Position numbers and translations under genes: made by a program
Origin: Methanotrichaceae archaeon
GTDB lineage: Archaea > Halobacteriota > Methanosarcinia > Methanotrichales > Methanotrichaceae
Reading direction: 5' to 3'
Length of the DNA stretch: 64,000 nt
NCBI GenBank assembly: GCA_963754945.1
Contig: CAVWIG010000013.1
Location: forward strand, 17,352-81,351
Shown: positions 2,893 to 46,230 of the stretch, one piece after another
Layout of the letters: each line of letters starts with the position of its first letter
Position numbering within the stretch: position 1 is the stretch's first letter
The notes under the pieces: model-generated
Database searches by the model: none
Seen by the model: only the letters and a program-made list of their open reading frames with translations
What the model was told of the DNA's origin: nothing

Positions 2893-4797
2893 ATGTGGAG
2901 GGACCGGATAATCTGCTTCATCTGCTTAGTGTACTTGTGCTTTTGTATTGGTCTATCTTTCAGTGAAGGATCAGACATCGTAAAGTCCCATGACGCTGAG
3001 CATAGTACACCGTTGTTAGATGGAGATCCCAAAATGAATGATGGAACGCTCAAGCTCATTTCCGCTACTCCAGGCTTTTCTCCGAAATCGGCGGGAGGAA
3101 ACCTGTCCATTAGCGGGATGGTATTTAACGACTTAAATGGCACCGGCCTGAGAACAAAAGAAACTATTGGCCTCCCTGGCTGGACAATAGTCCTGAGTCG
3201 TGATATGAATGAGATTCTCCAAACCACAACAGACTATGAGGGGCTGTATTCTTTCAAAAATCTGACACCTGGGAGATACATTGTCGTCGAAAATATGATT
3301 GATGGATGGAACCAGACCTGCCCTGGAGAAGAGAAAGGTGAAGCGAATTATACCATCAACCTGGTTGATGAAGATGCAATCAATTACAATTTTGGCAACA
3401 TTTTTGGCCCTGTGACTTATGTCCCTCAACGACATCCCATTATGTCAAAGAATGCATGGAACCAGCGAACTCAGGCCATTAAGAATCTGCCCAAAGCTGG
3501 AACCAATACTCAAGGCCGAGCTGGAGTTATTTACCCATCGTCTTTCAGCCTTTTGAGTCATATTCCGTACACTGCCAGCCAAAGAGATCAAGGTTCTTGC
3601 GGTAATTGTTGGGTTTGGGGTTGCACAGCTCCCATAGAGGTTGCTCACGATATTCAGAACGGAGTGCATGATCGCTTGTCGATCCAATATCTTAATTCAA
3701 ACTATAATGGAGGATCTGGAAGCAGTTGGGCTTGCTGTGGTGGCTGGGAAGTAGGTTTCCAGAACTTCTATAGTACAAAAGGGAATTTCATCCCATGGTC
3801 CAATTCAAACGCCAATTTTCGGGATGGCGGAAGAAGCTGTTCAGCTGGGACCAGTGTACCAGCCAGCTCGATCTCAACCTCTCCAAGCTACTCGATAACC
3901 TCCATCCAGTGGCACGAAATACAAACTACTGGTGTTAGCACAAATCAGGCAATTAGCAATATTAAAAGCTACCTTTACACAAACAAAGCTGTCACTTTAG
4001 GCTTTTACTTACCTGACTTCACACCATTCTGGAACTTCTGGGGGTCAAATTCCGGAAACTGGAACTCGGATAACTATTGCGGACTATCTGACGGGGCATA
4101 TCCTGGTGGACATGAAGTAACGATAGTGGGCTGGAACGACTCCACAGATTCTTGGATTGTGCTTAATAGCTGGGGCGTAGATTCTGCTCATCCTGATGGG
4201 ACTTACAAGCTCAAAATGGATATGAACTATAACTGCGCCAACGGGGGTTACTATTCATATAGCTTCGGATATTTCGATGTAGCCTTTGGAGCAGATACGC
4301 TAGTACCAGTATATCGCATGTATAGCCCATACGTAACGGATCATCTTTACACAACAAGTTACAATGAATATACAAAGGGTGCGGTTAATGTTGGATACAG
4401 CCAAGAAGGCATATTGGGTTACCTTTACCTAACTAAAGTACCTGGAACAGTGCCGTTATATCGCATGTATAGCCCTTATGTATTGGATCATCTTTATACA
4501 ACAAGTTACGATGAATATACAACGGGCGCGGTTAATGTTGGATACCGCCAAGAGGGCATATTGGGATATCTCTACTTAAATAGCGGCACAACAGGGACCT
4601 CACCAGTATATCGAATGTATAGCCCATATGCTACAGATCACTTTTACACAACAAGTTACAATGAATATACAACGAGCGCTGTAAATGTTGGATACAGCCA
4701 AGAAGGTATATTGGGTTATCTCTACTTAAATAGCGACACAACAGGGACCTCACCAGTATATCGAATGTATAGCCCCTATGTAACGGCTCATTTATAG
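2893..4797 (+). CDS. Secreted papain-like C1A cysteine protease: signal peptide, SdrD-B-like domain, peptidase C1, DUF5648-like repeats; C-terminus truncated by a MITE
   Basis: QGSCGNCW (catalytic Cys), GGHEVTIVGW (His) and NSWG (Asn). ISGMVFNDLNG is SdrD-B-like. VYRMYSPY..DHLYTT repeats of about 50 aa. The stop codon is the first triplet of the MITE. Confidence 0.9.
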   Translation: MWRDRIICFICLVYLCFCIGLSFSEGSDIVKSHDAEHSTPLLDGDPKMNDGTLKLISATPGFSPKSAGGNLSISGMVFNDLNGTGLRTKETIGLPGWTIVLSRDMNEILQTTTDYEGLYSFKNLTPGRYIVVENMIDGWNQTCPGEEKGEANYTINLVDEDAINYNFGNIFGPVTYVPQRHPIMSKNAWNQRTQAIKNLPKAGTNTQGRAGVIYPSSFSLLSHIPYTASQRDQGSCGNCWVWGCTAPIEVAHDIQNGVHDRLSIQYLNSNYNGGSGSSWACCGGWEVGFQNFYSTKGNFIPWSNSNANFRDGGRSCSAGTSVPASSISTSPSYSITSIQWHEIQTTGVSTNQAISNIKSYLYTNKAVTLGFYLPDFTPFWNFWGSNSGNWNSDNYCGLSDGAYPGGHEVTIVGWNDSTDSWIVLNSWGVDSAHPDGTYKLKMDMNYNCANGGYYSYSFGYFDVAFGADTLVPVYRMYSPYVTDHLYTTSYNEYTKGAVNVGYSQEGILGYLYLTKVPGTVPLYRMYSPYVLDHLYTTSYDEYTTGAVNVGYRQEGILGYLYLNSGTTGTSPVYRMYSPYATDHFYTTSYNEYTTSAVNVGYSQEGILGYLYLNSDTTGTSPVYRMYSPYVTAHL

Positions 4798-12050: not shown

Positions 12051-13304
12051 TCACCACGAGATCTTCTTTCGATAGTAGTTTCTTACTACGATAGCAAGCA
12101 TATTCGTTAACAGGACCAGGCCCACTAACACCAGGGCTGTACCCCAGGCATTTTTCTCAACGTCCCAAGCACCAAGGAAATATATCAGGTTAAGAAGATG
12201 ATAATCCAGGTTGTTCACAGGCTGGAATACGTTGGGAATCACCCCGTAGATCATCTGTACCGGAGTAGCTGTAAAGGTCACCGCTGTCCACATTATAGGT
12301 GCTGTTTCTCCCGAGGCTTTGGCAACACTTATAATAATCCCCGTCAGAATTCCCGGCATAGACGAAGGTAGAACGACCTTCCTGATAGTCTGCCATTTAG
12401 TCGCCCCAAGGGCCACGCTTCCTTCCCTCAGCGAGTTTGGAACGCTCTTGAGAGCCTCCTGAGTGGTGAGGATTACTATTGGAATATTGATCAGTCCCAG
12501 GATTATAGATCCCGTAAGAAGAGAAATACCCAGGAAGTTAATCAGAAAAGCCACGCCGAAAAGGCCGAAGACAACAGAAGGCACCCCATTTATGCAGCTT
12601 ACAGCGATGGTTATCAAGCGATTTAAAATCAAATTTTTTGAGTATTCATTGAGATAGATTGCAGCTCCTATGCCCAGGGGTGCAGAAAAAATCATGGCAC
12701 CTAGGATCATCCATAAGGAGCCTAAGATTGCCGTACTTATGCCTCCCTGGGTCCCCAGCTTCCTAGGGGGCTCGGTCAGGAACTCCCAGCTCAGGGCCCA
12801 TATGCCTTTGTATATAATAATAAATAGTATACCGCCTAAGATAAGGACGGAGATAACTGCAGTAAGCCGGATGGCAAGAAATACTAACGCCTCTCTGCTT
12901 TTACTACCAGAATCGTAGAGCAAGTTTATGGTGTCCTTAGTGACGACAATGCTGGCTGCTAAAACCAGGGCTGACAGGATTAGCTTGTATCCGAAGGTCG
13001 CACCAATACCCAAAGGAGTTCTTATTTCAACCTTCGGGCTGATGGTTCCTGTGAATATCAACAGAAAGACGGCCATGATGAAGAACAGGTCTAAGGCAAG
13101 GACAACACCAGTTTTCGAAGCTAGATTCAATTTTCTCTTTGTCAGAGCGGATAGGGCAATCAGCAGTGTAGACCCTGCCAGGGCCACTCCCCAAAGAATT
13201 GAGAGATATGTCAGATCAGGCTGGAAAATTATGCAGGCCACTGAAGAGATGAAGAGAAAGGCCGCTGCAGCGAAGGAGAGAGAATATGCGAGTTTTATCC
13301 TCAT
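12051..13304 (-). CDS. pstA: Phosphate ABC transporter permease PstA (with extra N-terminal TM segments)
   Basis: GVPSVVFGLFG, REGSVALGATKWQTI, GETAP. Confidence 0.93.
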   Translation of the reverse strand: MRIKLAYSLSFAAAAFLFISSVACIIFQPDLTYLSILWGVALAGSTLLIALSALTKRKLNLASKTGVVLALDLFFIMAVFLLIFTGTISPKVEIRTPLGIGATFGYKLILSALVLAASIVVTKDTINLLYDSGSKSREALVFLAIRLTAVISVLILGGILFIIIYKGIWALSWEFLTEPPRKLGTQGGISTAILGSLWMILGAMIFSAPLGIGAAIYLNEYSKNLILNRLITIAVSCINGVPSVVFGLFGVAFLINFLGISLLTGSIILGLINIPIVILTTQEALKSVPNSLREGSVALGATKWQTIRKVVLPSSMPGILTGIIISVAKASGETAPIMWTAVTFTATPVQMIYGVIPNVFQPVNNLDYHLLNLIYFLGAWDVEKNAWGTALVLVGLVLLTNMLAIVVRNYYRKKISW

Positions 13305-13305
13305 T

Positions 13306-14229
13306 TCAATATCCTCCGAACTTCTTCCGAATTCTGGCCCTAATTTGATCGGCCACCACGTTTAGAATGGTTACGACCAACAAAAGAACTAGTCCGACGG
13401 CAAATAGCGCTTGAAAATGCAACGAACCTCTGGCAACCTCTCCCATCTCGCCCGCTATGACCGATGTAAATGTAGCCCCCGTATCAAAAATATTGAACAC
13501 GGGGGTGGGTAAACTGGGAACATTTCCTACAACAAGAAGGACTGCCATTGTCTCACCCATGATTTGGCCGACGTTGAGAAGAACAGCTGCTGTAATGCCG
13601 GAGGATGCGGCCGGTATGGTAACGTGCCTTATTGTCTGCCATTTATTGGCTCCAAGAGCCATAGATCCTTCCTTGAATTCGCTTGGAACTGCTCTTAGTG
13701 CATCCTCGCATATGGTAGTCATGCTTGGAATGAACATTATCCCCAAGAGTATAGAACCAGCGAGGAGGGACCTCCCTGTAAGCATGTCGAAGCTCTCCTG
13801 CAAGTACTTAACAAGTATAATCACTCCAAGAAAGCCGTAGACTATAGAAGGCACTCCTGCAAGCAGCTCTATCGCCGGCTTCAGAAAATCCTTTTCCCTC
13901 GGTCCTGCCAGCTCGGACAAGTAAACAGCCAAGGGGAAACCAATACAGATGTTTATAATAAGCGCCATCGACGTTATCAAGAGGGAATTTATGATCAAAG
14001 GCATCATACCATATGTATCGGATGGAGGGTGCCACGTCTGGCCCATGATTAGATTTATTATCCCTACTTTTGCAAATGCGTTGACCCCTTCCTGGAACAA
14101 AAAGTAGAAGATCATCACCATGATAATTATCGAAGTAATAGCGGAGATGAACAGTACGGATTCAACGAATTTCTCGCCGTACCTCCTCTGCAACCCCATG
14201 CTTTCTGGCTTGGGTAGATCCATACACAT
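13306..14229 (-). CDS. pstC: Phosphate ABC transporter permease PstC
   Basis: ELLAGVPSIVYG, EGSMALGANKWQTI, GETMAV. Confidence 0.94.
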   Translation of the reverse strand: MCMDLPKPESMGLQRRYGEKFVESVLFISAITSIIIMVMIFYFLFQEGVNAFAKVGIINLIMGQTWHPPSDTYGMMPLIINSLLITSMALIINICIGFPLAVYLSELAGPREKDFLKPAIELLAGVPSIVYGFLGVIILVKYLQESFDMLTGRSLLAGSILLGIMFIPSMTTICEDALRAVPSEFKEGSMALGANKWQTIRHVTIPAASSGITAAVLLNVGQIMGETMAVLLVVGNVPSLPTPVFNIFDTGATFTSVIAGEMGEVARGSLHFQALFAVGLVLLLVVTILNVVADQIRARIRKKFGGY

Positions 14230-14260
14230 GGCCCAATTGCATCATCGCTTAAAACCCTTG

Positions 14261-14278
14261 TCTATATTATCTATATAG
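14261..14278 (-). promoter_or_regulatory. Candidate phosphate-regulatory direct repeat (CTATAT x2, 9-bp period) upstream of pstC
   Basis: tctatatta-tctatatag. The same arrangement occurs upstream of pstB at 30779-30796. Confidence 0.35.
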
Positions 14279-14494
14279 AGGATGTATTGCCATGCTTGAA
14301 GACCCAAAATCATCATCTTTTAGTTCAATACTTCCCAGCCATAGGGCTTGAAGACCCATGGTTGCTAGTAATAGAAACTTGATTTTTATGAATATTCTCA
14401 ATTGATTCAATGAAAAAAATGGCCCGACAGAATAGCTAAAAAATACTGGATAAGATAAGTTTAATAAAAAAAGTTGTAGGGATCGCCCAGCTCA

Positions 14495-15316
14495 TTACAG
14501 AGCTATGTATCCATTTTCCTTGGCTATCTTCTGTCCTTCAGGGCCGCTTACAAAGTCGATGAATGCCTTAGCGCCCTTTGTAGGCAGGCCGCCAAAGGTA
14601 TCCAGGTAGAGTTTGCGAGCCAATGGATAAGTCTTATCCTTTACTGTTGCCTCGGTAAGCTTGATGCCATTGAGAGTAACTACCCCAAGGGCTCCGCTCT
14701 GGGAATAGCTGTAGCCGAGATATCCAATTGCCTTATCGCTTCCGGTTATGGCAGTCTTGACTTCAGAGTTGCCGCTTGCATAGGTCTTAACTCCGGGAGT
14801 TCGTGCGTTAGCGTCCCCCATTACATCGGTCAAGAAATTAGCCAGAGTGCCGGAGCCCTGCTCCCTTGATATTGCGTAGATCTGTGCATCTGGGCCTTTC
14901 AGGTCCTTCCAGTTCGTTGTGTTACCTGCATATATCTTCTTGATCTGATCTATGGTAAGAGCATTAACGCCTGCGTCATAAATTGGCTTGCTCACGCATA
15001 TGGCTATTCCGTCGTAACCGATCAAATTCTCGACGAACTTGTCGCCGTACTTGGTCTTCTCATCTGTAGTTACCTCTCGAGAGGCCATTGCAACATCTGC
15101 CTGGCCCTGAGCAAGGGCAGTTATGCCGGCACCGGTACCAGTCTGAGCGACAGAAACGTGGTATTGTGTTTGGTTCGCATTGAAGGCATCAGCACATAGA
15201 ACGCCCAGTGGTCCTACGGTTGTGGATCCGGAAACAACGACTTCTGTTGCTGCCGATGAGGCGGCAATCGTCCCCAGCATCAGGGAGACTAATAATACAG
15301 CTATTAGTTTTCTCGT
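14495..15316 (-). CDS. pstS: Phosphate-binding protein PstS
   Basis: SGSTTV, GTGAG, MASR, SREQGSGT, YPLARKLY. The full signal peptide begins at an ACG codon at 15316; the first ATG is at 15280. Confidence 0.92.
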   Translation of the reverse strand, partial: TRKLIAVLLVSLMLGTIAASSAATEVVVSGSTTVGPLGVLCADAFNANQTQYHVSVAQTGTGAGITALAQGQADVAMASREVTTDEKTKYGDKFVENLIGYDGIAICVSKPIYDAGVNALTIDQIKKIYAGNTTNWKDLKGPDAQIYAISREQGSGTLANFLTDVMGDANARTPGVKTYASGNSEVKTAITGSDKAIGYLGYSYSQSGALGVVTLNGIKLTEATVKDKTYPLARKLYLDTFGGLPTKGAKAFIDFVSGPEGQKIAKENGYIAL

Positions 15317-17178: not shown

Positions 17179-18147
17179 TCAGAGATCGCGATAATGATGC
17201 AGCTTTATTACACTAAGACAGGCAGTGGCCTCTCTGAAGATGAACGCGTTATGATCGCGATCTATGCCAAGTCTGGCCATTCTGAGAAGACCCAAGGCCA
17301 TAAAAAATGGCAACGCTCTTGTGATTCTCCTAAACTCATCTTCATTCCTGCTGTACTTCCACAAGAAATGTCCTATATAGGGCTCTGCTCTTCCTGCGTT
17401 ATTCTTATGAATTGCAAAATAGTGTTTAAGCTCTGCTGCAACTGTTCCAAGATCGTGGACAAAGTTGGCATGCTCCCAGGAGCTCTCCAAATCCAGAACG
17501 TAAACCTTGTTTTGATTAAATACGTAGTTGACTGGATTGGCGTCGCTGTGGATCATACATCCGTGTGGTTGATCCAGAAGTGTGGAATACCACCAGTCTC
17601 CTAGTAGCTGGTCATACTTTAATCGAGTCTTTCGATCCAACCTGAGCTGATCCAATACTTTATGAGAATAGGCGAATTCATCCTGCTTGCGGTACTCTGA
17701 CACTGTATTTTCATGGAGTTTTCTTTGCGTGTGGGCCATGGCTGTCAGCTTATCATAAAGCCCGTTCTCGGTTCTCATATACATGAAAAGAGGCTTGCCG
17801 TGTACGTACTCGGTTACAAGAACGCAAGAGAAGTCCTTTCTCATTCCTACCGGCCTCGGAACGTCTATGATTCGCTCAACCTTTTTTAGTGTCCAGAATT
17901 CCCTCTCCATGGATTTGACCGGATCGTAATCCCTTTTCCAGCCAGTAGGCTCAGCATAGAACTTGGCTACTACGCCACACTCTTCGCCCACGAACTCGTA
18001 TCGGCAGACTGTGTGAGATGCCGGGCCTATCTTGAACACCCGGACGTCGCATTTTTTGTGGTGTAATCTATCACCTAAAGCATCAACCAGCCAGTCTCTG
18101 AAGACGTCCCCTGGTTTCAGTGTACTTACTTGTCTTTCTGAGAGCAT
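17179..18147 (-). CDS. APH/choline-kinase-like phosphotransferase
   Basis: VAKFY, MIHSDANPVN (HxDxxxxN), LDLE, HDLG. Confidence 0.85.
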   Translation of the reverse strand: MLSERQVSTLKPGDVFRDWLVDALGDRLHHKKCDVRVFKIGPASHTVCRYEFVGEECGVVAKFYAEPTGWKRDYDPVKSMEREFWTLKKVERIIDVPRPVGMRKDFSCVLVTEYVHGKPLFMYMRTENGLYDKLTAMAHTQRKLHENTVSEYRKQDEFAYSHKVLDQLRLDRKTRLKYDQLLGDWWYSTLLDQPHGCMIHSDANPVNYVFNQNKVYVLDLESSWEHANFVHDLGTVAAELKHYFAIHKNNAGRAEPYIGHFLWKYSRNEDEFRRITRALPFFMALGLLRMARLGIDRDHNAFIFREATACLSVIKLHHYRDL

Positions 18148-18394
18148 GTATACCTCGATTGGGTCAGAAATTGAGTTTATATAGCTTTTCTCAATTAATT
18201 ATATGCTGTCAAGTCTTATAAAGGATCTATATAGCCGGGATAAACGATAGTGATTTTCAGCACAATTCAGATTTTCTTCTTCCTGCTGAATATCAAGTGC
18301 CCTACTGAAGGCCCAAAGTTAGTTTATTTTCGAAAGGCAAACTAAAAGAACATAATAATACTGGTACATGCCCGTGAATGTTTGTGAAGATTTT

Positions 18395-18561
18395 AGGAAA
18401 TTGGATTTAGCGCCTCAAAAGACAAGCGATTATAAGGAGACACCGCACCTAGGGCCGAAATGGTGCGGTGTTTCTTTAGGCATCCGAGGGGAATTGCCTG
18501 TAGGGTATTATAAGACAGGGCCCTAGGAAGGTCATAATGTATAAGAATATAAAAATTTCCT
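18395..18561 (+). ncRNA. Candidate pseudoknotted RNA, array unit C0
   Basis: 15-bp stem 18435-18449/18462-18476. cctagggcc (18448-18456) is complementary to ggccctagg (18519-18527). Closing stem aggaaatt/aatttcct. Confidence 0.5.
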
Positions 18562-18589
18562 TGATAGAATATATAAGGACCATAGCCGT

Positions 18590-18904
18590 CAATTAAGTAA
18601 CCGATTGAAATTGCTCTATTGTCCTAACATATAGATTGGATTGTTCTGCAGTGGGCGCGTGTAATTGAAGGATATTCGATATGAATTCCGTACCTAAGGT
18701 ATCATAAGAAGGACCTCAGGAAAGTACCACATCTGGACCTGGGCGTTGAGATGAGACATGGTACTTTCCCGGTTTGTTCTGGAAACTCGTTTTTACTGGA
18801 GGGACCACCCAGGACTGGGCCCGAGATGCTTACTGTTAATGTCGAATATATTGATTGTCCAAATAGAATATATGCGGATCATAGGCGTCAATTAAGTAAT
18901 TGGC
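18590..18904 (+). ncRNA. Candidate structured RNA, array unit C1 (about 300-nt repeat)
   Basis: Homologous to 20176-20480. Conserved stems atattcgatat/atgtcgaatat and ggaaagtacca/tggtactttcc. Confidence 0.55.
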
Positions 18905-20175
18905 GGCAGTGTAACGATTTTTCTGTACTTTGATAATAAGAATGATTATCGGCCCTGTATCCTATCCAATCTTGAGAAAAGGAGGACACAGGACCATGAT
19001 ACCCATAGCACTCTTGGAAGATTACCTTATCGATCAGGAAGATGGACTAAAGAAGCTTCTGACCTGGTTCTTGAACCTTGTAATGCAGCTAGAAGCGGCG
19101 CAACAGGCAGATGCAGAACCGTATCAGAGAGTCGAATCCCGAAAGGCACATAGGAATGGCTACAAGGAAAGATCTCTGAAGACGCGAGTTGGAGAGCTCC
19201 GACTCAAGAAACCTCAATTCCGTGAAATTTCCTTCGAAACCAAGGTGTTCGACAGATTTTCGCGCGTAGAGAAGGCTTTGGTCAACGCTGTACTCGAATC
19301 GTATCTCCAGGGGGTTTCAACCAGGAGAATCCAAGATATTGTCTCTCGATTTGGCATCGAGAATTTATCTGCCTCTAGCGTTTCCAGGATATCCAAAGAG
19401 CTTGACGAGAAGGTAGAAGAATTCCTGAAGAAACCTATCGAACGTCCTATTCCTTATCTTTATGTAGATGCAAGCTACTTCAAAGTAAGAACAGAATCAA
19501 GATATGTTACCAAAGCTTTCATGATCGTCACAGGTGTTAGAGATGACGGTTATCGCGAGATACTTGGCGCAAGAATAGCTGACAGTGAAGATGAACTCTT
19601 CTGGTCGGGATTATTTCAAGATCTGGCGGATCGTGGGTTGTCCGGAGTAAAGCTCGTGATATCAGATGGTCATAAGGGAATCCAGAAAGCGGTTGAGAAA
19701 TCATTTCTTGGTGCTTCATGGCAAATGTGTCACGTTCACTTTTCAAGAGCGGTCTTGAGAAACGTTGCCAAGAAGTATCATAAGGAGATCGCCGATAAGA
19801 TCAAGATCGCTCTGGAAGACGAAATCAAGATACAGGACTTAGCGAAAGAATTGAGGGAAAGAGGTTATGCGAAATCTGCTGACACTATCGACCGCTTCAG
19901 ATTCAGTCTGTGGAATTACAGGGCATTCCCCAGAGGTCACTGGAGAAGGATTCGGACTACAAACGGGCTGGAGAGGATCAACAAGGAGCTGAAAAGAAGA
20001 TCCAGGGTAGTCGGTGCCTTCCCAAGTGAGAGCTCGTTCATGAGGTTAGGGGTTTCGATCCTCATCGATATCAACGAAGAATGGCTGACCGCTAAAAAGT
20101 ATTTATCTATGGATGCTGATTGAGTATGTTGGGATACAGGGCAACTCCAAATTACAGAAATCTCGGCACACTACC
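18905..20175 (+). mobile_element. IS256-family element, copy 2
   Basis: IRs present, with 8-bp TSD taattggc at 18897-18904 and 20176-20183. Confidence 0.96.
18930..20123 (+). CDS. IS256 transposase
   Basis: DDE motifs. Protein identical to 39671-40864. Confidence 0.95.
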   Translation: MIIRMIIGPVSYPILRKGGHRTMIPIALLEDYLIDQEDGLKKLLTWFLNLVMQLEAAQQADAEPYQRVESRKAHRNGYKERSLKTRVGELRLKKPQFREISFETKVFDRFSRVEKALVNAVLESYLQGVSTRRIQDIVSRFGIENLSASSVSRISKELDEKVEEFLKKPIERPIPYLYVDASYFKVRTESRYVTKAFMIVTGVRDDGYREILGARIADSEDELFWSGLFQDLADRGLSGVKLVISDGHKGIQKAVEKSFLGASWQMCHVHFSRAVLRNVAKKYHKEIADKIKIALEDEIKIQDLAKELRERGYAKSADTIDRFRFSLWNYRAFPRGHWRRIRTTNGLERINKELKRRSRVVGAFPSESSFMRLGVSILIDINEEWLTAKKYLSMDAD

Positions 20176-20480
20176 TAATTGGCTGAAATTGCTCTATTGT
20201 TCAGACATTTTAGGAGAGGAGTTGAGATTTAAGCGGACTGCTCGAAAAAGGATTACATTGTACTGCCCAGAGAACGTGTAATCGAAGGATATTCGATATG
20301 AATTTGAATTTCGCACCTAAGTATCAGAAGTAGGACCTCAGGAAAGTACCAAATCTGGACCTGGACGTTGAGAGGAACATGGTACTTTCCCATTTTGAAC
20401 TCGTTTTTACTGGAGGGACCACCAGGTTGGCCCGAGATGCTTACTGTTAATATTGAATATATCGATTGTCCAAATAGAAT
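20176..20480 (+). ncRNA. Candidate structured RNA, array unit C2
   Basis: Diverged copy of C1 with pair-preserving changes; indels lie mostly outside the stems. Confidence 0.55.
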
Positions 20481-20624
20481 AAAGCAAGACAATAGAGATC
20501 CCAGATTGACTTATTTACTTTACTTTCCGACTTTTAGTCCTATATTTCAGCTTATTGAGCAGACCTACATCCATCGGGTATCGGCGCTTGTGCTTTGCAG
20601 TTCCGACAGACAATACCCAAGATG

Positions 20625-21100
20625 TTGATCATGGTTTCTTCCGGGAGTCCTCGTGGAGGCAATAGTTAGTGATCAACTTTTGAGAGCTGATCAGCGCGAC
20701 TAAAGGAAAGGTGAATCTCCTCTACTATGGAGCCTTGAACTCAAGATCGACTCGGAACTATAATCGATCGACTTGATGTAGGGTTACCAAACGTCACCTC
20801 ATTCAAGAATTGCAGATGCCAATCATGCGACGACGGTCGCAAGAACCTTCTTTGCTGACTAGACTCGCAGTTTTGTTAAAAGCTACAAGGACTATACTGC
20901 AACGGAGAGCGAGAAGTTTCTTGGAAGTCGTATCGTATAGTTAGGGTAACGTCCACGGCAAAAAGCGTTTCTGAGAGTTGTAGGAACGCCACATAAGAGG
21001 CCAAGGCTTGTGTGGCCGTTCGCGAGACAGTCGAGATCCGTCTTGTGGAGTCCTTTGAGGTACGTTATGGCCTAATGCTTCGAATGGCAACATAGGATTT
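20625..21100 (+). ncRNA. Candidate large structured RNA D (about 470 nt)
   Basis: Consecutive hairpins with G-U pairs: tgatcaactt/gagctgatca, gcgtttctg/taggaacgc, ccacataag/cttgtgtgg, ttcgcgagac/gtcttgtgga. Confidence 0.5.
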
Positions 21101-21104
21101 ATTT

Positions 21105-21212
21105 ATTTTCCAAATACAACAAGAGACGATCAGTGATCTATAGTAATCATTTTCAAAAAGCTGATATCATCGACCACAACACTCCTTTTATGGGAGAGAC
21201 CTAAATCCATCC
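21105..21212. repeat. About 110-bp diverged repeat, copy 1 (copy 2 at about 24431-24538)
   Basis: attttcca.atacaacaag...atctatagtaatca.tttcaaaaagctgatatcat...aaatccatcct is present at both sites. Confidence 0.85.
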
Positions 21213-21447
21213 TAGTCAGCTGCATATCTCTACCTTCCGCGATTCATTCGTGAGCGATATCGATTTAGGCAGTCCTCTTGACCTGTTGCAACCATGTTCC
21301 TATTGTATCTCTGGTGCAGTCTCATCCACACCTCATGAGCGCGAATAGCTCTCGTACTCTCGCCACAGTCTCGCGATCTGGTATCTCTTGGCTCGTAGCT
21401 TCCTGGCTTTCGTAGAGGACTTTGCTTAACCAAGACGGACTGATAAC

Positions 21448-24066
21448 TCAATGTTCCCATAGGATATGACTCTCTTCTAAAGGTACGAGGGCATCCGGGT
21501 GATAGGGAACTATTCGAGGCGTGTAATGATCCGCAGGGCGCGCTGCAAGCAACCGAGCCCTATATAGATAGCCATTGATCACTCCTGGTATGGGGGCCTC
21601 TTTGGTCATGGCCACTTTCATCGGTCCTTTATCATCCATTGAATCAGCGTAGAGTTCCACCTTAACCATGCCTGGATCGATTTCACCGAAGTAGACCTGA
21701 ACCTCAAACTTCCAGTTCTCACCGTCTCTGGAAACACTTGTGCCCAAGAATCGCATGCTACTCCAGTTTTCAGCTATTCTTTTGGCCCAAACGTCCAGTT
21801 CTTTGGCCAGCCTGCAACCATCTGCTTCTCGGCTCCTGAAGGTCTTGGATGCAGTCAAGTAAATCTTCTCAACATACTCGCGCATCATGCGATCGCTGCT
21901 GAACTTTGGTGTAAGCTTTGACATACTGGCTCTGATACGAGCAATCCAGGCACTGGGATATCCTTCACTGTCGCGGGTATAAAACTCAGGAACTACTTGT
22001 TCTTCCAGAAGTCTGTAGAGCTGCTCTGCGTCGCTTTCATCCTGTTGAGGACCCAGGTAATCACGGCCATCTCCTAAGCTCCAGCCCACTTCAGGACCAT
22101 AGGCCTCTGCCCACCAGCCATCAAGGACAGAAAGGTTCAGCCCGCCATTTGCTAAGATCTTCATCCCACTGGTTCCTGACGCCTCCATTGGACGACATGG
22201 AACATTGATCAACAGGTCAACTCCGGACAAGAGCTTCTGAGCTAGGGCTATATCGTAATCCTCCAGGAAGACCACTCTATCGAAGAGATCCGGCCGGGAG
22301 GCAAACTGAGCCATTTCCTTGACCATTCTCTTGCCTTCATCATCTCTGGGATGAGCTTTCCCTGCCACTATGAATTGAACTGGACGTTTTGGGTCCTTCA
22401 GGATCCGGGCAAACCTGTCGGCATCACGAAGCAGAAGAGTAGGCCTCTTGTAAGATGCAAACCTCCGGGCGAATCCTATGGTCAGGGCATTAGAGTCGAG
22501 AACGTGATTGGCCTTCTGGATCTTTTCGGCATCAGCTCCATGCTCCTGAAGTTGGCGGATCAATCTGCGCCTGATATAATCTACCAGGCTCTTGCGTTCT
22601 TCAGCCCGGAAGCTCCAAAGCGCTTCATCGCTTAATCTTGATATCTCCAGAACTTTCTCAACATCGGTCAGATCTTTATGCTCATAACCGCATGCACGAC
22701 TCCATATTTTCTTTGTCACAGGAGATTCCCAGGATGAAACATGCACTCCATTGGTGATGTGCTCAACAGGGACCTCGGCTTGAGGCCATCGAGGGAAGAG
22801 TGGCTGGAAGATCCGTCGGCTCACTTCTCCGTGAAGGCGGCTTACACCGTTGACGTGGGAACATCCTCGCATGGCCAAAAGAGCCATGACATATGGGCTG
22901 TTCTCGTCTTCGGGGTCTACCCTACCTAAATTTACCAGTTCTTTCGCAGTGATTCCAACCGATTCCGCAGTCCATCGTGCATATCGATCGATTAGAGATT
23001 TATCAAAGCTATCAAAGCCGGAACCAACGGAAGTATGAGTAGAGAAAACATTGCCGACCCTGGTTGCCCAAAGGGCCACGGAGAAGGGAACGTTGTGTTT
23101 CACCATGAAGCTATAAGCTCTGGCCAACACCAGAAATGAGGCATGTCCCTCATTGATATGGCATACATCAACCTCTATGCCCATAGCCTGTAGGGCTAAC
23201 CATCCTCCCGCACCTAGGACTATCTCCTGGATTAGCCGTCGTTCCTCTCCAGGATCGTAGAGATTAGCAGTGATAGCCCTATCCCAAAGGCTGTTCAATG
23301 GGTCGTTAGAATCAAGGAGGTAAAGGTCAACTCTTCCAACCTGAGCTTTCCAGACCCTGAGGTATAGATCCCTTTCTGGAAGCAGAAGCTTGACCCTCAG
23401 ACGGCTGCCATCATTCTTGAGCACAGGAACCACGGGCAGCGTTAAAGGATCGTTAAAAGGGAAGGCATCTATCTGTGAACCATCATCGGCCAGAACCTGA
23501 TGGAAATAGCTTTGTTGATATAACAGCCCCATTCCTGTCAGTGGGACTCCTAAGTCACTAGCAGTCTTGAGGTGGTCTCCGGCAAGTATTCCCAGGCCCC
23601 CGGAATAGATTGGTAGCGCCTCGCTTAATCCGAACTCCATGCTGAAATAAGCTATCTTCCCCATCTGGAAACAGTAGCCATGCCGATCGAACCAGCACAT
23701 CTCCTCTTGGCTTTTTTTTCTGCTTTCCGTCCATAACTGAAGTTCCTTCTTGAACTCTTCATCTTGAGAGATTTCTTCCAACCGCTCCTCTGAAATATTC
23801 TTCAGGATCATGTAGGGATTATTGGTTTGCTCCCAGGCCTCAGGATCCAACCGCCTCCAGATCAAATCTGCGGCGCAACGCTCATTCAAGCGAAGGTCTA
23901 AAGCAAGTTCGTATAGTACCTCAAGACCCTCTGGAAGGGAACGTTGAAATGAAGAGTTCATACAAATACCCTCATTATTCAAAATCCCATTAATGAGATG
24001 CTTCAGCCCAATGGTATATCTTACATCCAGGCAGAACTCTCTTGGCCACAAATCCTTCTCGTTCAA
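21448..24066 (-). CDS. glgP: Alpha-glucan (glycogen/starch) phosphorylase
   Basis: AYFSMEFGL, YSGGLGILAGD, ARRFASYKR, AGKAHP, and EASGTSGMK (PLP lysine). Start uncertain. Confidence 0.95.
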   Translation of the reverse strand: MNEKDLWPREFCLDVRYTIGLKHLINGILNNEGICMNSSFQRSLPEGLEVLYELALDLRLNERCAADLIWRRLDPEAWEQTNNPYMILKNISEERLEEISQDEEFKKELQLWTESRKKSQEEMCWFDRHGYCFQMGKIAYFSMEFGLSEALPIYSGGLGILAGDHLKTASDLGVPLTGMGLLYQQSYFHQVLADDGSQIDAFPFNDPLTLPVVPVLKNDGSRLRVKLLLPERDLYLRVWKAQVGRVDLYLLDSNDPLNSLWDRAITANLYDPGEERRLIQEIVLGAGGWLALQAMGIEVDVCHINEGHASFLVLARAYSFMVKHNVPFSVALWATRVGNVFSTHTSVGSGFDSFDKSLIDRYARWTAESVGITAKELVNLGRVDPEDENSPYVMALLAMRGCSHVNGVSRLHGEVSRRIFQPLFPRWPQAEVPVEHITNGVHVSSWESPVTKKIWSRACGYEHKDLTDVEKVLEISRLSDEALWSFRAEERKSLVDYIRRRLIRQLQEHGADAEKIQKANHVLDSNALTIGFARRFASYKRPTLLLRDADRFARILKDPKRPVQFIVAGKAHPRDDEGKRMVKEMAQFASRPDLFDRVVFLEDYDIALAQKLLSGVDLLINVPCRPMEASGTSGMKILANGGLNLSVLDGWWAEAYGPEVGWSLGDGRDYLGPQQDESDAEQLYRLLEEQVVPEFYTRDSEGYPSAWIARIRASMSKLTPKFSSDRMMREYVEKIYLTASKTFRSREADGCRLAKELDVWAKRIAENWSSMRFLGTSVSRDGENWKFEVQVYFGEIDPGMVKVELYADSMDDKGPMKVAMTKEAPIPGVINGYLYRARLLAARPADHYTPRIVPYHPDALVPLEESHILWEH

Positions 24067-24084: not shown

Positions 24085-24430
24085 ACCGAATCAGTCCTCA
24101 CGTCTGAGGCTGGAAAGTGAACTTGGGGTTTACTGCTCTTCTAGGCCCAAGGCATGCCTTTATCTCCGTCATTTTGATCCGTCCGGAATTCCAGGGTGTC
24201 TGACTCTTCTGCTCTAAGATAAGCCTTTGAATAAGCTTCGCCGTAGCTTTCGGCTTTCTTCGGATCAGAATTATTCGGTCGGCATTTCTGGTCAGATCCT
24301 CCCGTGAATGGAACTCCCAAGCGAGAGGGACACCACATAAGAGGCTCACAAGATAGTTGAGATCCCTCTTTTGGGATCCGGTTGAGGAAGCTATGGCCCA
24401 AAGATGTATCCGTGGCAACTAGATATATCC
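24085..24430 (+). ncRNA. Candidate structured RNA E; 3' part homologous to D
   Basis: cctca/tgagg, cttggggttta/taggcccaag, tctgac/gtcaga and gatccc/gggatc. Shares ccacataagaggc, agtYgagatcc, tatggcc and tggcaac with D. Confidence 0.4.
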
Positions 24431-24538
24431 ATTTTCCATATACAACAAGGGATGATCAATAATCTATAGTAATCAGTTTCAAAAAGCTGATATCATGAGC
24501 CAACCACTACTTTTTGGGGGAAAGCCCAAATCCATCCT
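24431..24538. repeat. About 110-bp diverged repeat, copy 2
   Basis: Matches 21105-21212. Confidence 0.85.
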
Positions 24539-24702: not shown

Positions 24703-25782
24703 ATGCGCTCATATTTATTATCAGATGTTGTATTATGCGCAATTGTTATAACCTCACTTACCATTGGTGTTCTTATCGGATCATTTGCAGGCCACACGAA
24801 TAAATTGGGACCCGAAAATGATAGCCTCGTAACTTCTTCCGGAGGAGCCTTATCGAATATCGAAGAAAAAAATAACAGCCTTGCTATTGGGAAGAGCAAG
24901 AATTCCATTAAAAATATGACAATCATACCCCCTAGAATTCCAAAAGTCCCTATAAATATATTTGATCAAAATGATTTTAAACACATTTTTTCTGTAGACA
25001 CATATTATAAAAAAAGTAAATATGCATTCAAGGAATATTATTGGACTGATATAACCGAAATACTTGGAGGCGGGTTCTTTAATGCTTCGAAAGAATCCGA
25101 TTGCGGCGAAAAGGCTGCATTTGCAGAATGGCTTCTAAGAAGGCATGGCATCAATGCGTCTATAGTTGCTGCTGATAAATTCCCGGGCATGAACTGTTCT
25201 CACGCCTGGGTAAAGGTAAAGACCCCCCTAAATGAAACTATATTCATAGATTTAAGTCAGAGCCAGGCTAATGGGAACGATACAGGATATATAAAAATAG
25301 GCGACGATTATAAGCATTTTGACAGGGAATTCAAAGATGTGTTTGAGGCAGAAAGCAGTTATAGCGACTCGTGCAGTAGCTGCGAACATCATTTCGGGTG
25401 GTGGGAGACAGATTGGGGAAAGTTGAAGCTGAAGAGTTTAGGGCTTTATGATAATGAAACCATTACAGTTGCAGGATCTGCAGCAATCTTTCCCATCGCG
25501 GATGCAGAAGCCAAGGCATTCAATTCTCAACGCAACGGTTGCAGGGTGAATCTTAATGGTGGTAGCAATAGCGAATGTATAGCTGCCATCGCTGAGAACA
25601 TATCAGACATAGCATTGACCTCCAGAGAAGTTACGAAGGATGAGAAAAAAGAATACGGCGACAATTTCAAGCAATTTAATATTGGGTTAGAAGGACGAAT
25701 CGTCGTTGTGAGCAAGTCTATCTACCAGGCCGGGATCAAGGAACTGACAAGGGAGCAGTTAAGAAATATCGTATGTGTTTAG
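24703..25782 (+). pseudogene. Secreted/anchored transglutaminase-like domain fused to a PstS-like domain, truncated by IS66
   Basis: DCGEKA..SHAWV..FID (Cys-His-Asp), then ITVAGS..FPIA...DIALTSREVT (PstS-like). The IS66 IR starts at 25771. Confidence 0.75.
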
Positions 25783-45939: not shown

Positions 45940-46230
45940 TGCCATCAGAACTTTTTCGACTCATTTTTCAAGTTGCTAACACCTCGACGTTTCAATCCTT
46001 GTCTTCGTGGATCGTGCTCTCGAAGCGTTTTATGCAACTTCCGACCTTATCAGAACTATAACGTTGGTAATCTTAGCAATTATTCTTCATCCTTGGAGCA
46101 ACCTTCGAGAAAGCTGATTCGACCCAGTGATTCCACGTGTTCTTGAAGTCTGGTGATCTTCAAGTTTCCTTCGTTTCCTTATGCTCCAGATCCTTCGACG
46201 CCCCCTGAAGTAGATGCGTCTTTTTGAGCA
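45940..46230 (+). ncRNA. Candidate structured RNA H (strand tentative)
   Basis: aagttgc/gcaactt, ccgac/gttgg, tggagca/tgctcca, cttgaag/cttcaag and gacgc/gcgtc. Confidence 0.4.

Follow-up and report, generated by a model that had tools for sequence, protein, structure and literature searches.

The closest described parallels to the locus treated here come from two archaea. In Haloferax volcanii, an intergenic small RNA, sRNA132, is reported to build up when phosphate is low and to act on operons for phosphate ABC transporters (PMC6560208). In Methanosarcina mazei, the PHO stimulon genes phoA and pstSCAB-phoU rise on phosphate starvation; the part of that study considered here names no cis-element or regulator and calls archaeal polyphosphate gene regulation unknown (PMC6864096). 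The present analysis concerns a 64,000-nucleotide (nt) stretch from a Methanotrichaceae archaeon (assembly GCA_963754945.1, contig CAVWIG010000013.1, positions 17,352 to 81,351), hereafter the window, in which a non-coding unit of about 300 nt is present as two tandem copies, C1 and C2, each ending in a 25-nt box, the T box. The archaeal origin of this DNA agrees with the archaeal SSU model, which scores 1550 bits over its full length. We give about as much credence as doubt to the reading that the units are promoter-plus-hairpin-RNA cassettes, duplicated in tandem, of a phosphate-type regulon.

The setting is like that of sRNA132 (PMC6560208) in that the cassettes sit in a pst, phoA and phosphatase neighbourhood. 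The analogy is functional only. Unlike sRNA132, the units are tandem and have their box in common with protein-gene promoters, and their host belongs to a different phylum-level lineage. The T box also adjoins, in Methanotrichaceae, gene types that belong to the M. mazei stimulon (PMC6864096), standing before phoA and beside pstS. Here the box is a computational candidate, and this analogy, too, is one of function.

The units lie in the 3.3 kb between the start of an APH-like kinase gene (17179-18147, minus strand) and the end of an alpha-glucan phosphorylase gene (21448-24066, minus strand), an interval that, leaving aside an inserted transposable element, holds no credible open reading frame (ORF). 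Its main features are as follows, the minus strand given for boxes and modules being the predicted one.

18425-18546, minus strand: M0 module, the conserved part of a preceding segment called C0; a 17-bp hairpin (18433-18449/18462-18478), then about 68 nt to T0; an inverted repeat with a layout like that of the C units.
18547-18571, minus strand: T0 box, a diverged copy of the 25-nt box, 17/25 identical to T1; it aligns with the other boxes.
18572-18622, no strand assigned: linker and 17-nt block (18606-18622), the block invariant in all four unit sequences; 86-87% identity to orthologues.
18623-18705, no strand assigned: variable spacer of C1, without about 39 nt found in C2 and both orthologues; 63-69% identity, not above four-fold degenerate sites.
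18706-18845, minus strand: conserved domain of C1, an 11-bp hairpin (18719-18729/18759-18769) and the stretch from there to the box; together with T1, 153/164 and 152/165 positions identical to orthologues; 43/44 hairpin cells paired.
18846-18870, minus strand: T1 box, matching the family pattern with 0 mismatches, 24/25 identical to T2.
18871-18904, no strand assigned: hybrid linker, like the T0 linker (26/34 identical), ending in the first copy of a target-site duplicate (18897-18904).
18905-20175, plus strand: insertion sequence (IS) of the IS256 family, with a transposase ORF at 18930-20123 (PF00872); 22 identical copies, and an IS-less joint in contigs.
20176-20183, no strand assigned: second copy of the target-site duplicate, 8 letters that fit either side of the joint.
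20184-20456, minus strand: C2, with the 17-nt block, a spacer including a segment of about 40 nt, the conserved domain and its hairpin (20341-20351/20380-20390); domain 86-88% identical to orthologues, with 7-nt and 3-nt deletions.
20457-20481, minus strand: T2 box, an exact match to the family pattern.
20981-21267, minus strand: R1, a distant module paralogue with a hairpin, about 75 nt and a T-like box (21097-21121); copies at window 24346-24538 and at C17:200245-200527.

The two copies are plainly homologous. C1 (18590-18904) and C2 (20176-20481) are 83% identical over 243 columns, and when the IS is removed in silico, 18514-18870 aligns to 18813-20481 with a period of about 299 nt. The indels that separate the copies have lengths that are not multiples of three and the eight small ORFs of the region gave 0 credible matches in a Pfam search, so that an earlier reading of the sequence alone (the sequence-only reading), which had seen here two adjacent diverged copies without a credible ORF on either side of an IS256 insert, is borne out. 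It was equally right about the insert itself. The element encodes a Mutator/IS256-type DDE transposase (PF00872, Transposase_mut; E 9.1e-103, profile positions 20-378 of 379), is bounded by the 8-bp duplicate at 18897-18904 and 20176-20183, and has its empty site in contigs of one DNA run and one RNA-library run, which join 18896 to 20176 and thereby skip 1279 nt, the 8 duplicated letters being assignable to either side. The assembly contains 22 full-length copies of the element at 100% identity, the one in the window included, as well as two further copies above 99.6% and several at 79-83%, which indicates a very recent burst. Many assembly contig ends fall inside this element.

The history of the tandem can be read from its relatives. 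With the kinase protein as query, 15 loci came up in metagenome contigs, among which L039 and L042 carry C0, a single unit and what follows it downstream (over this region, L038 does not differ from L042). A DNA contig of run X2 likewise shows one unit running into the sequence that follows C2, and run X1 has both copies without the IS. Words of the unit are present at a fraction of at least 0.19 in 8 of the 24 runs listed. The C1-C2 tandem is thus a strain-level duplication, and the "tandem array" of the sequence-only reading comes down to two copies here and one in the relatives seen. Nor is C0 a third full unit, as had been thought: it has in common with a C unit about 90 nt (18514-18600 against 18813-18899, 72.5% identity) and the same hairpin-to-box layout. 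The T1 region is a hybrid, since the box is T2-like (24/25) and the next 34 nt are T0-like (26/34 against 13/34), a pattern that we read as the signature of unequal crossing-over between box-plus-linker repeats flanking a single ancestral unit. The ancestral locus would thus have consisted of M0, a single unit and a box-plus-linker repeat on either flank; the tandem would have come from unequal crossing-over of these repeats, and an active IS256-family element would then have inserted in the hybrid linker. In L029, whose kinase is 96% identical, only 18152-18409 is kept (the first 260 nt or so upstream of the kinase gene), followed by unrelated ORFs; the M0 hairpin and the unit are both missing there, which suggests that close strains can do without the cassette region or replace it. 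At more distant kinase loci, a divergent gene stands about 100 nt upstream in place of the cassette, and in the same-genus genomes a comparison of synteny found kinase and phosphorylase genes not adjacent. Outside this locus, the 2.97-Mb assembly holds no other copy of the unit. A BLAST search of 60 relatives returned no real homologue and no match longer than 40 nt; one exact 20-mer of the unit had 0 matches in metagenome contigs, and another had 0 in genome contigs and 0 in viral contigs.

Part of this non-coding DNA is well conserved. Four-fold degenerate sites of the kinase gene, compared with the window, served as a neutral yardstick and gave identities of 0.66 for L039 (56 sites) and 0.75 for L038/L042 (63 sites). 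The domain that runs from hairpin to box (18706-18870) is identical at 153/164 positions in L039 (Fisher p 2e-6 against the four-fold sites) and at 152/165 in L042 (p 7e-4). An identity of 92-93%, compared with 66-75% at the four-fold sites, shows that this domain is under purifying selection and that the region is not junk. The segment made of T0, linker and 17-nt block (18539-18632) is identical at 82/94 positions to L039 and at 81/94 to L042. Identity is 63% (L039) and 69% (L042) in the spacer 18633-18705, and 59% to L039 in the middle of C0 (18330-18424), which is largely deleted in L042. Conservation ends just beyond the hairpin. The conserved domain of C1 is closer to the orthologues (92-93%) than that of C2 (86-88%, with 10-11 gap columns).

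The box belongs to a family that extends well beyond this locus. When the 25-nt IUPAC pattern was searched with up to 2 mismatches in 101 Methanotrichaceae genomes, the T box was found in 23 of them, representing five of 16 genera, and the reversed pattern, used as a control, in 0. Pairs of boxes 293-299 nt apart occur in three genera (in this window, G116 and G028). All 12 modules compared, which form six sequence groups from four genera, have a helix of 6-17 bp ending 63-89 nt before the box (plus orientation), the stem sequences of the six groups being unrelated. Compared with shuffles, the helix is clearly better in six of the 12 rows (0-5 of 200) and weakly or not better in the others. 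The 17-bp helix of M0 was reached by 0/200 shuffles, and one of its pairs is preserved by a two-sided change in L039. The conserved part of C0 (M0 plus T0, 18425-18571) and R1 are modules of this kind. R1 also represents an R-type element, composed of a hairpin, a T-like box and about 150 nt conserved on the plus side of the box, which is found at 20981-21267 and 24346-24538 of the window, at G000 C17:200245-200527 and in G002 (L017, around 3990-4100). At window 24346-24538 and in G002 it lies upstream of a phosphorylase gene and the 3' half of its hairpin is deleted. In run X15, RNA-library contigs reach a summed depth of about 20 over 21040-21182.

In Methanothrix, a conserved stretch of about 215 nt precedes the box in 10 genomes (L052, L055, L058-L064 and other loci), separating it from the phoA side of a cluster of pstS, response-regulator and phoA genes. 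Two long-range inverted repeats, of 8 bp and 7-12 bp, are kept in 10/10 sequences, and column shuffles gave z values of -6.3 and -7.1. RNAalifold kept only 19 pairs, almost all of them invariant, with a covariation term of +0.48. The structure is thus suggested by conserved long-range inverted repeats, not by covariation, and the element is a candidate new RNA motif. A profile of it, run with nhmmer against the genome studied here, matched only the 55-85 nt next to the box, the best match being in C2 (E 0.012). No Rfam family matched any of eight related box loci up to E 0.1, and a literature search of limited scope brought up no paper on Methanothrix/Methanosaeta small RNAs or on the T box motif.

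What the box does, and in which direction, was approached through the genes around it. Eleven query proteins taken from box loci and from the window were searched for within 1.5 kb on either side of 30 box loci, of which two are the window itself and some overlap. At least one of the 11 proteins was found at 21 of the 30 loci: PhoA at seven, PstS at eight, the others including response regulators, a calcineurin-like phosphoesterase, a low-molecular-weight (LMW) phosphatase and the kinase. On the minus side of the box, 16 of 21 gene rows read away from it, with their 5' ends nearest, at distances of 35-1490 nt; they comprise alkaline phosphatase (seven loci), Metallophos, LMW-PTP, an ABC ATPase, response regulators, the phosphorylase of G002 and the kinase of the window. 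For the queried families, every row on the plus side has its 3' end facing the box. The gap between the end of the box and the ATG of the alkaline phosphatase gene, phoA, is 28 nt in L053, and in G091 and G110, too, the box abuts phoA. L046 (G026 C21:187-193 kb), from another genus, holds four boxes within 6 kb, adjoined by an LMW phosphatase, a response regulator and a kinase homologue.

In an archaeal promoter, a TATA box comes after a purine-rich B recognition element (BRE). All variants of the T box, read in minus orientation, have a purine-rich hexamer and then an AT-rich octamer, which fits the archaeal BRE/TATA consensus, and in L053, at about 28 nt from the start codon of phoA, the box stands where such a promoter would. 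In its distance and orientation to genes (L053, and 16/21 rows overall) the T box behaves as an archaeal promoter would be expected to. It differs from the plain BRE/TATA arrangement in its additional 10-12 conserved bases upstream and in a short second repeat some 8-9 nt further on, and these additions suggest a bound regulator. The box is most likely a promoter firing on the minus strand of the window, T2, T1 and T0 all pointing towards the kinase gene. The "TATA-like linker" noticed from the sequence alone does hold a promoter-like box, then, but the gene context in related genomes indicates minus-strand firing, opposite to the plus strand on which non-coding RNA genes had been placed. A minus-strand promoter would account for conservation ending just past the hairpin and for everything keeping a fixed distance from the box.

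We therefore propose a cassette of the following kind. A phosphate-type promoter box would drive a short minus-strand RNA, with a transcribed stretch of about 100-120 nt, whose 5' end would lie in the conserved block beside the box and whose 3' end would be the strong hairpin and its pyrimidine-rich tail. Its predicted 5' ends fall about 23-27 nt downstream of the boxes, near 18822, 20433 and 18521, and its predicted 3' ends just beyond the hairpins, near 18706, 20328 and 18425. Such an RNA would most likely either regulate as a small RNA in its own right or serve as an attenuating leader for the kinase gene. The promoter would be one of the phosphate-starvation response, a proposal founded on the position of the box directly upstream of alkaline phosphatase and other phosphate-related genes in other genomes.

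Several observations weigh against a phosphate-controlled RNA of the minus strand, and some of them speak for the model of the sequence-only reading, in which a structured plus-strand RNA of about 270-300 nt starts from the TATA-like linker, near 18598 and 20184, is closed by helices 18661-18682/18839-18858 with the hairpin and a pseudoknot inside, and has the T box as part of its 3' end. In metatranscriptome contigs of two runs, the kinase gene has a depth of 12-30 and the hairpin domains have no cover; one contig, at a depth of about 5, bridges the IS-less C1/C2 junction, which is background level, because a presumably silent pseudogene nearby has a depth of 2-8, and DNA carry-over is possible. 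The link to phosphate comes from gene neighbourhood only, in genomes that are kin and at loci many of which are syntenic. Five of the 21 minus-side gene rows point towards the box, from 563-2242 nt away, although three of these belong to a third, oppositely oriented box in L046. ORFs do follow the box on its plus side, starting after 121 nt in L047 and L069 (another genus) and, in the window, after 255 nt at the R2 box (ORF 24703), so that the box region may be divergent. Single-module folding energies favour the plus strand in 8/12 modules. In the two long-range helices, 72/76 cells are standard pairs in the four unit sequences, 15 of them G-U and 0 A-C, so that the helices could form only in plus-strand RNA; one pair appears as G-U, G-C and A-U. 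To this may be added the 17-nt block just after the linker, invariant in 4/4 sequences, and the complementarity between loop and downstream sequence, which recurs with different letters in M0, R1, R3 and G116b (p 0.007-0.04 in four of six rows).

Even so, we consider the plus-strand model unlikely. All the complementarities on which it was built exist (18661-18668/18851-18858, 18672-18682/18839-18849, 18719-18729/18759-18769 and 18738-18743/18808-18813), but as support for a fold of some 300 nt the long-range stems and the pseudoknot do not rise above controls. In the test set of four sequences (C1, C2 and the metagenomic orthologues L039u and L042u), whose power to detect covariation is low, 94.4% of cells are paired, compared with 94.2% in shuffles, 376/500 of which reach the observed value. 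The changes that had been taken as pair-preserving are all one-sided wobbles, and 0 of 36 pairs change on both sides, a result that also counts against structure in the minus-strand RNA that we propose. L039u breaks two pairs of long-range helix a, and L042u one pair each in helices a and b; moreover, the G-U count is biased, the helices having come from a plus-strand search allowing G-U. Taken alone, C1 does not outdo dinucleotide shuffles in folding on either strand (minimum free energy z -0.98 on plus, -0.57 on minus), a control that the sequence-only reading had named as one that could refute it. Column shuffles of the four-sequence consensus gave z -1.11 on plus and -3.54 on minus for the whole unit, and -3.27 and -5.62, respectively, for the hairpin region. 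Only the 11-bp hairpin is robust among the proposed elements. Substitutions in the hairpins of the unit (L039u) and of M0 (L039, L042), and in the loop pairing (L039u), give A-C on the plus strand and G-U on the minus, a hint, like the consensus z values, of the minus strand. The loop-to-downstream pairing is short and in most paralogues built on a self-complementary four-base core. A targeted test gave p 0.007-0.04 in four of 12 rows and 0.08-0.78 in the other eight, its target columns cutting the C1 and C2 rows short, so that their own proposed pairing was not fairly probed. The overall comparison is null, own loops averaging 6.08 bp and cross-group loops 5.41 bp, with 43% of cross pairs reaching 6 bp. 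Finally, in front of alkaline phosphatase the box acts as a promoter facing the opposite way. What stands of the original proposal is a conserved, non-coding, promoter-associated sequence with a real hairpin.

The domain might also matter as DNA. Its conservation could serve DNA-binding proteins, and the whole could be promoter, operator and terminator DNA of a rearrangement-prone phosphate neighbourhood. The hairpins would then be remnants of terminators or palindromes bound by proteins, unequal crossing-over would have left the second copy as a neutral side effect, and no dedicated RNA product would be of importance. Across genera it is indeed the AT-rich box itself that is conserved best; the unit shows no two-sided covariation and the stems of the Methanothrix element never vary; the C2 domain is decaying relative to that of C1; L029 does without the M0 hairpin and the unit; and a pseudogene and IS copies litter the locus. 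Against this stands the placement of the hairpin, which is alike relative to the box in 12/12 modules with six unrelated stems, as would be unexpected for a common protein site. The roughly 75 nt between hairpin and box are also 92-93% conserved, and the Methanothrix stretch beside the box keeps its two inverted repeats in every sequence. We judge an explanation by DNA alone unlikely. Hardly any credence is left for the units being a relic of a miniature inverted-repeat transposable element (MITE) or a decayed protein-coding gene, despite imperfect inverted repeats about 160 nt apart and a true pseudogene 100 nt downstream. A MITE was rejected: copies of the unit occur only in this locus, matches in the 60 relatives do not exceed 40 nt, and no target duplication marks the unit boundaries. 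A decayed ORF was rejected as well, since a relaxed tblastn search with the intact 346-residue paralogue of the downstream pseudogene found nothing in the units, the Pfam search of the eight ORFs was empty and the indels do not come in threes; only 20581-20976 answers to that description. In line with the sequence-only reading, the region holds no tRNA, rRNA or CRISPR repeat, nor a member of any Rfam family: Rfam release 15 had no match at gathering score in the region and none credible up to E 10 in 18100-21500 (best E 1), and a search for tRNAs in the region found none.

Two further features lie in the interval around the cassettes.

18148-18232, minus strand: kinase-proximal conserved stretch, the gene's own promoter-like region; 91-92% identity to two metagenomic orthologues against 66-75% at four-fold sites.
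20581-20976, plus strand: pseudogene fragment of a DUF4352-like secreted protein, 5'-truncated and frameshifted, outside the cassette.

The pseudogene, which begins 100 nt downstream of the units, is also internally deleted; its intact paralogue, of 346 amino acids, is on contig C32 (G000 C32:25927-26964), and the metagenome locus L042 carries the same pseudogene. In the wider window, pstS-like, pstC-like and pstA-like genes occupy 12051-15280, and a second PBP_like_2 protein is encoded at 24703-25782, all of them near the cassettes. Elements of the IS256, IS66 and IS1634 types have broken up the phosphate-uptake neighbourhood that the window represents. Far from the cassettes, at 45989-46025 (minus strand), a CRISPR repeat matches Rfam CRISPR-DR7 with 40.3 bits.

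Methanotrichaceae are acetate-using methanogens, important for the release of methane from peat and sediments, and how archaea sense and answer phosphate shortage is, to our knowledge, largely unknown. A box that stands before phoA and beside pstS, and is repeated before small hairpin-forming transcripts, would, if this is true, give experimenters a concrete handle. The locus also shows a route by which such cassettes multiply, namely unequal crossing-over between promoter repeats. It is an improbable proposal, put forward tentatively, that the 25-nt box is the first recognisable cis-element of the methanogen phosphate-starvation response, and that the hairpin/pseudoknot RNAs it would drive (modules of about 115 nt and the two-domain Methanothrix element of about 215 nt) form a new phosphate-linked family of riboregulators or sensing leaders absent from Rfam. 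Should these RNAs be real regulators, they would constitute an archaeal RNA family missing from current libraries.

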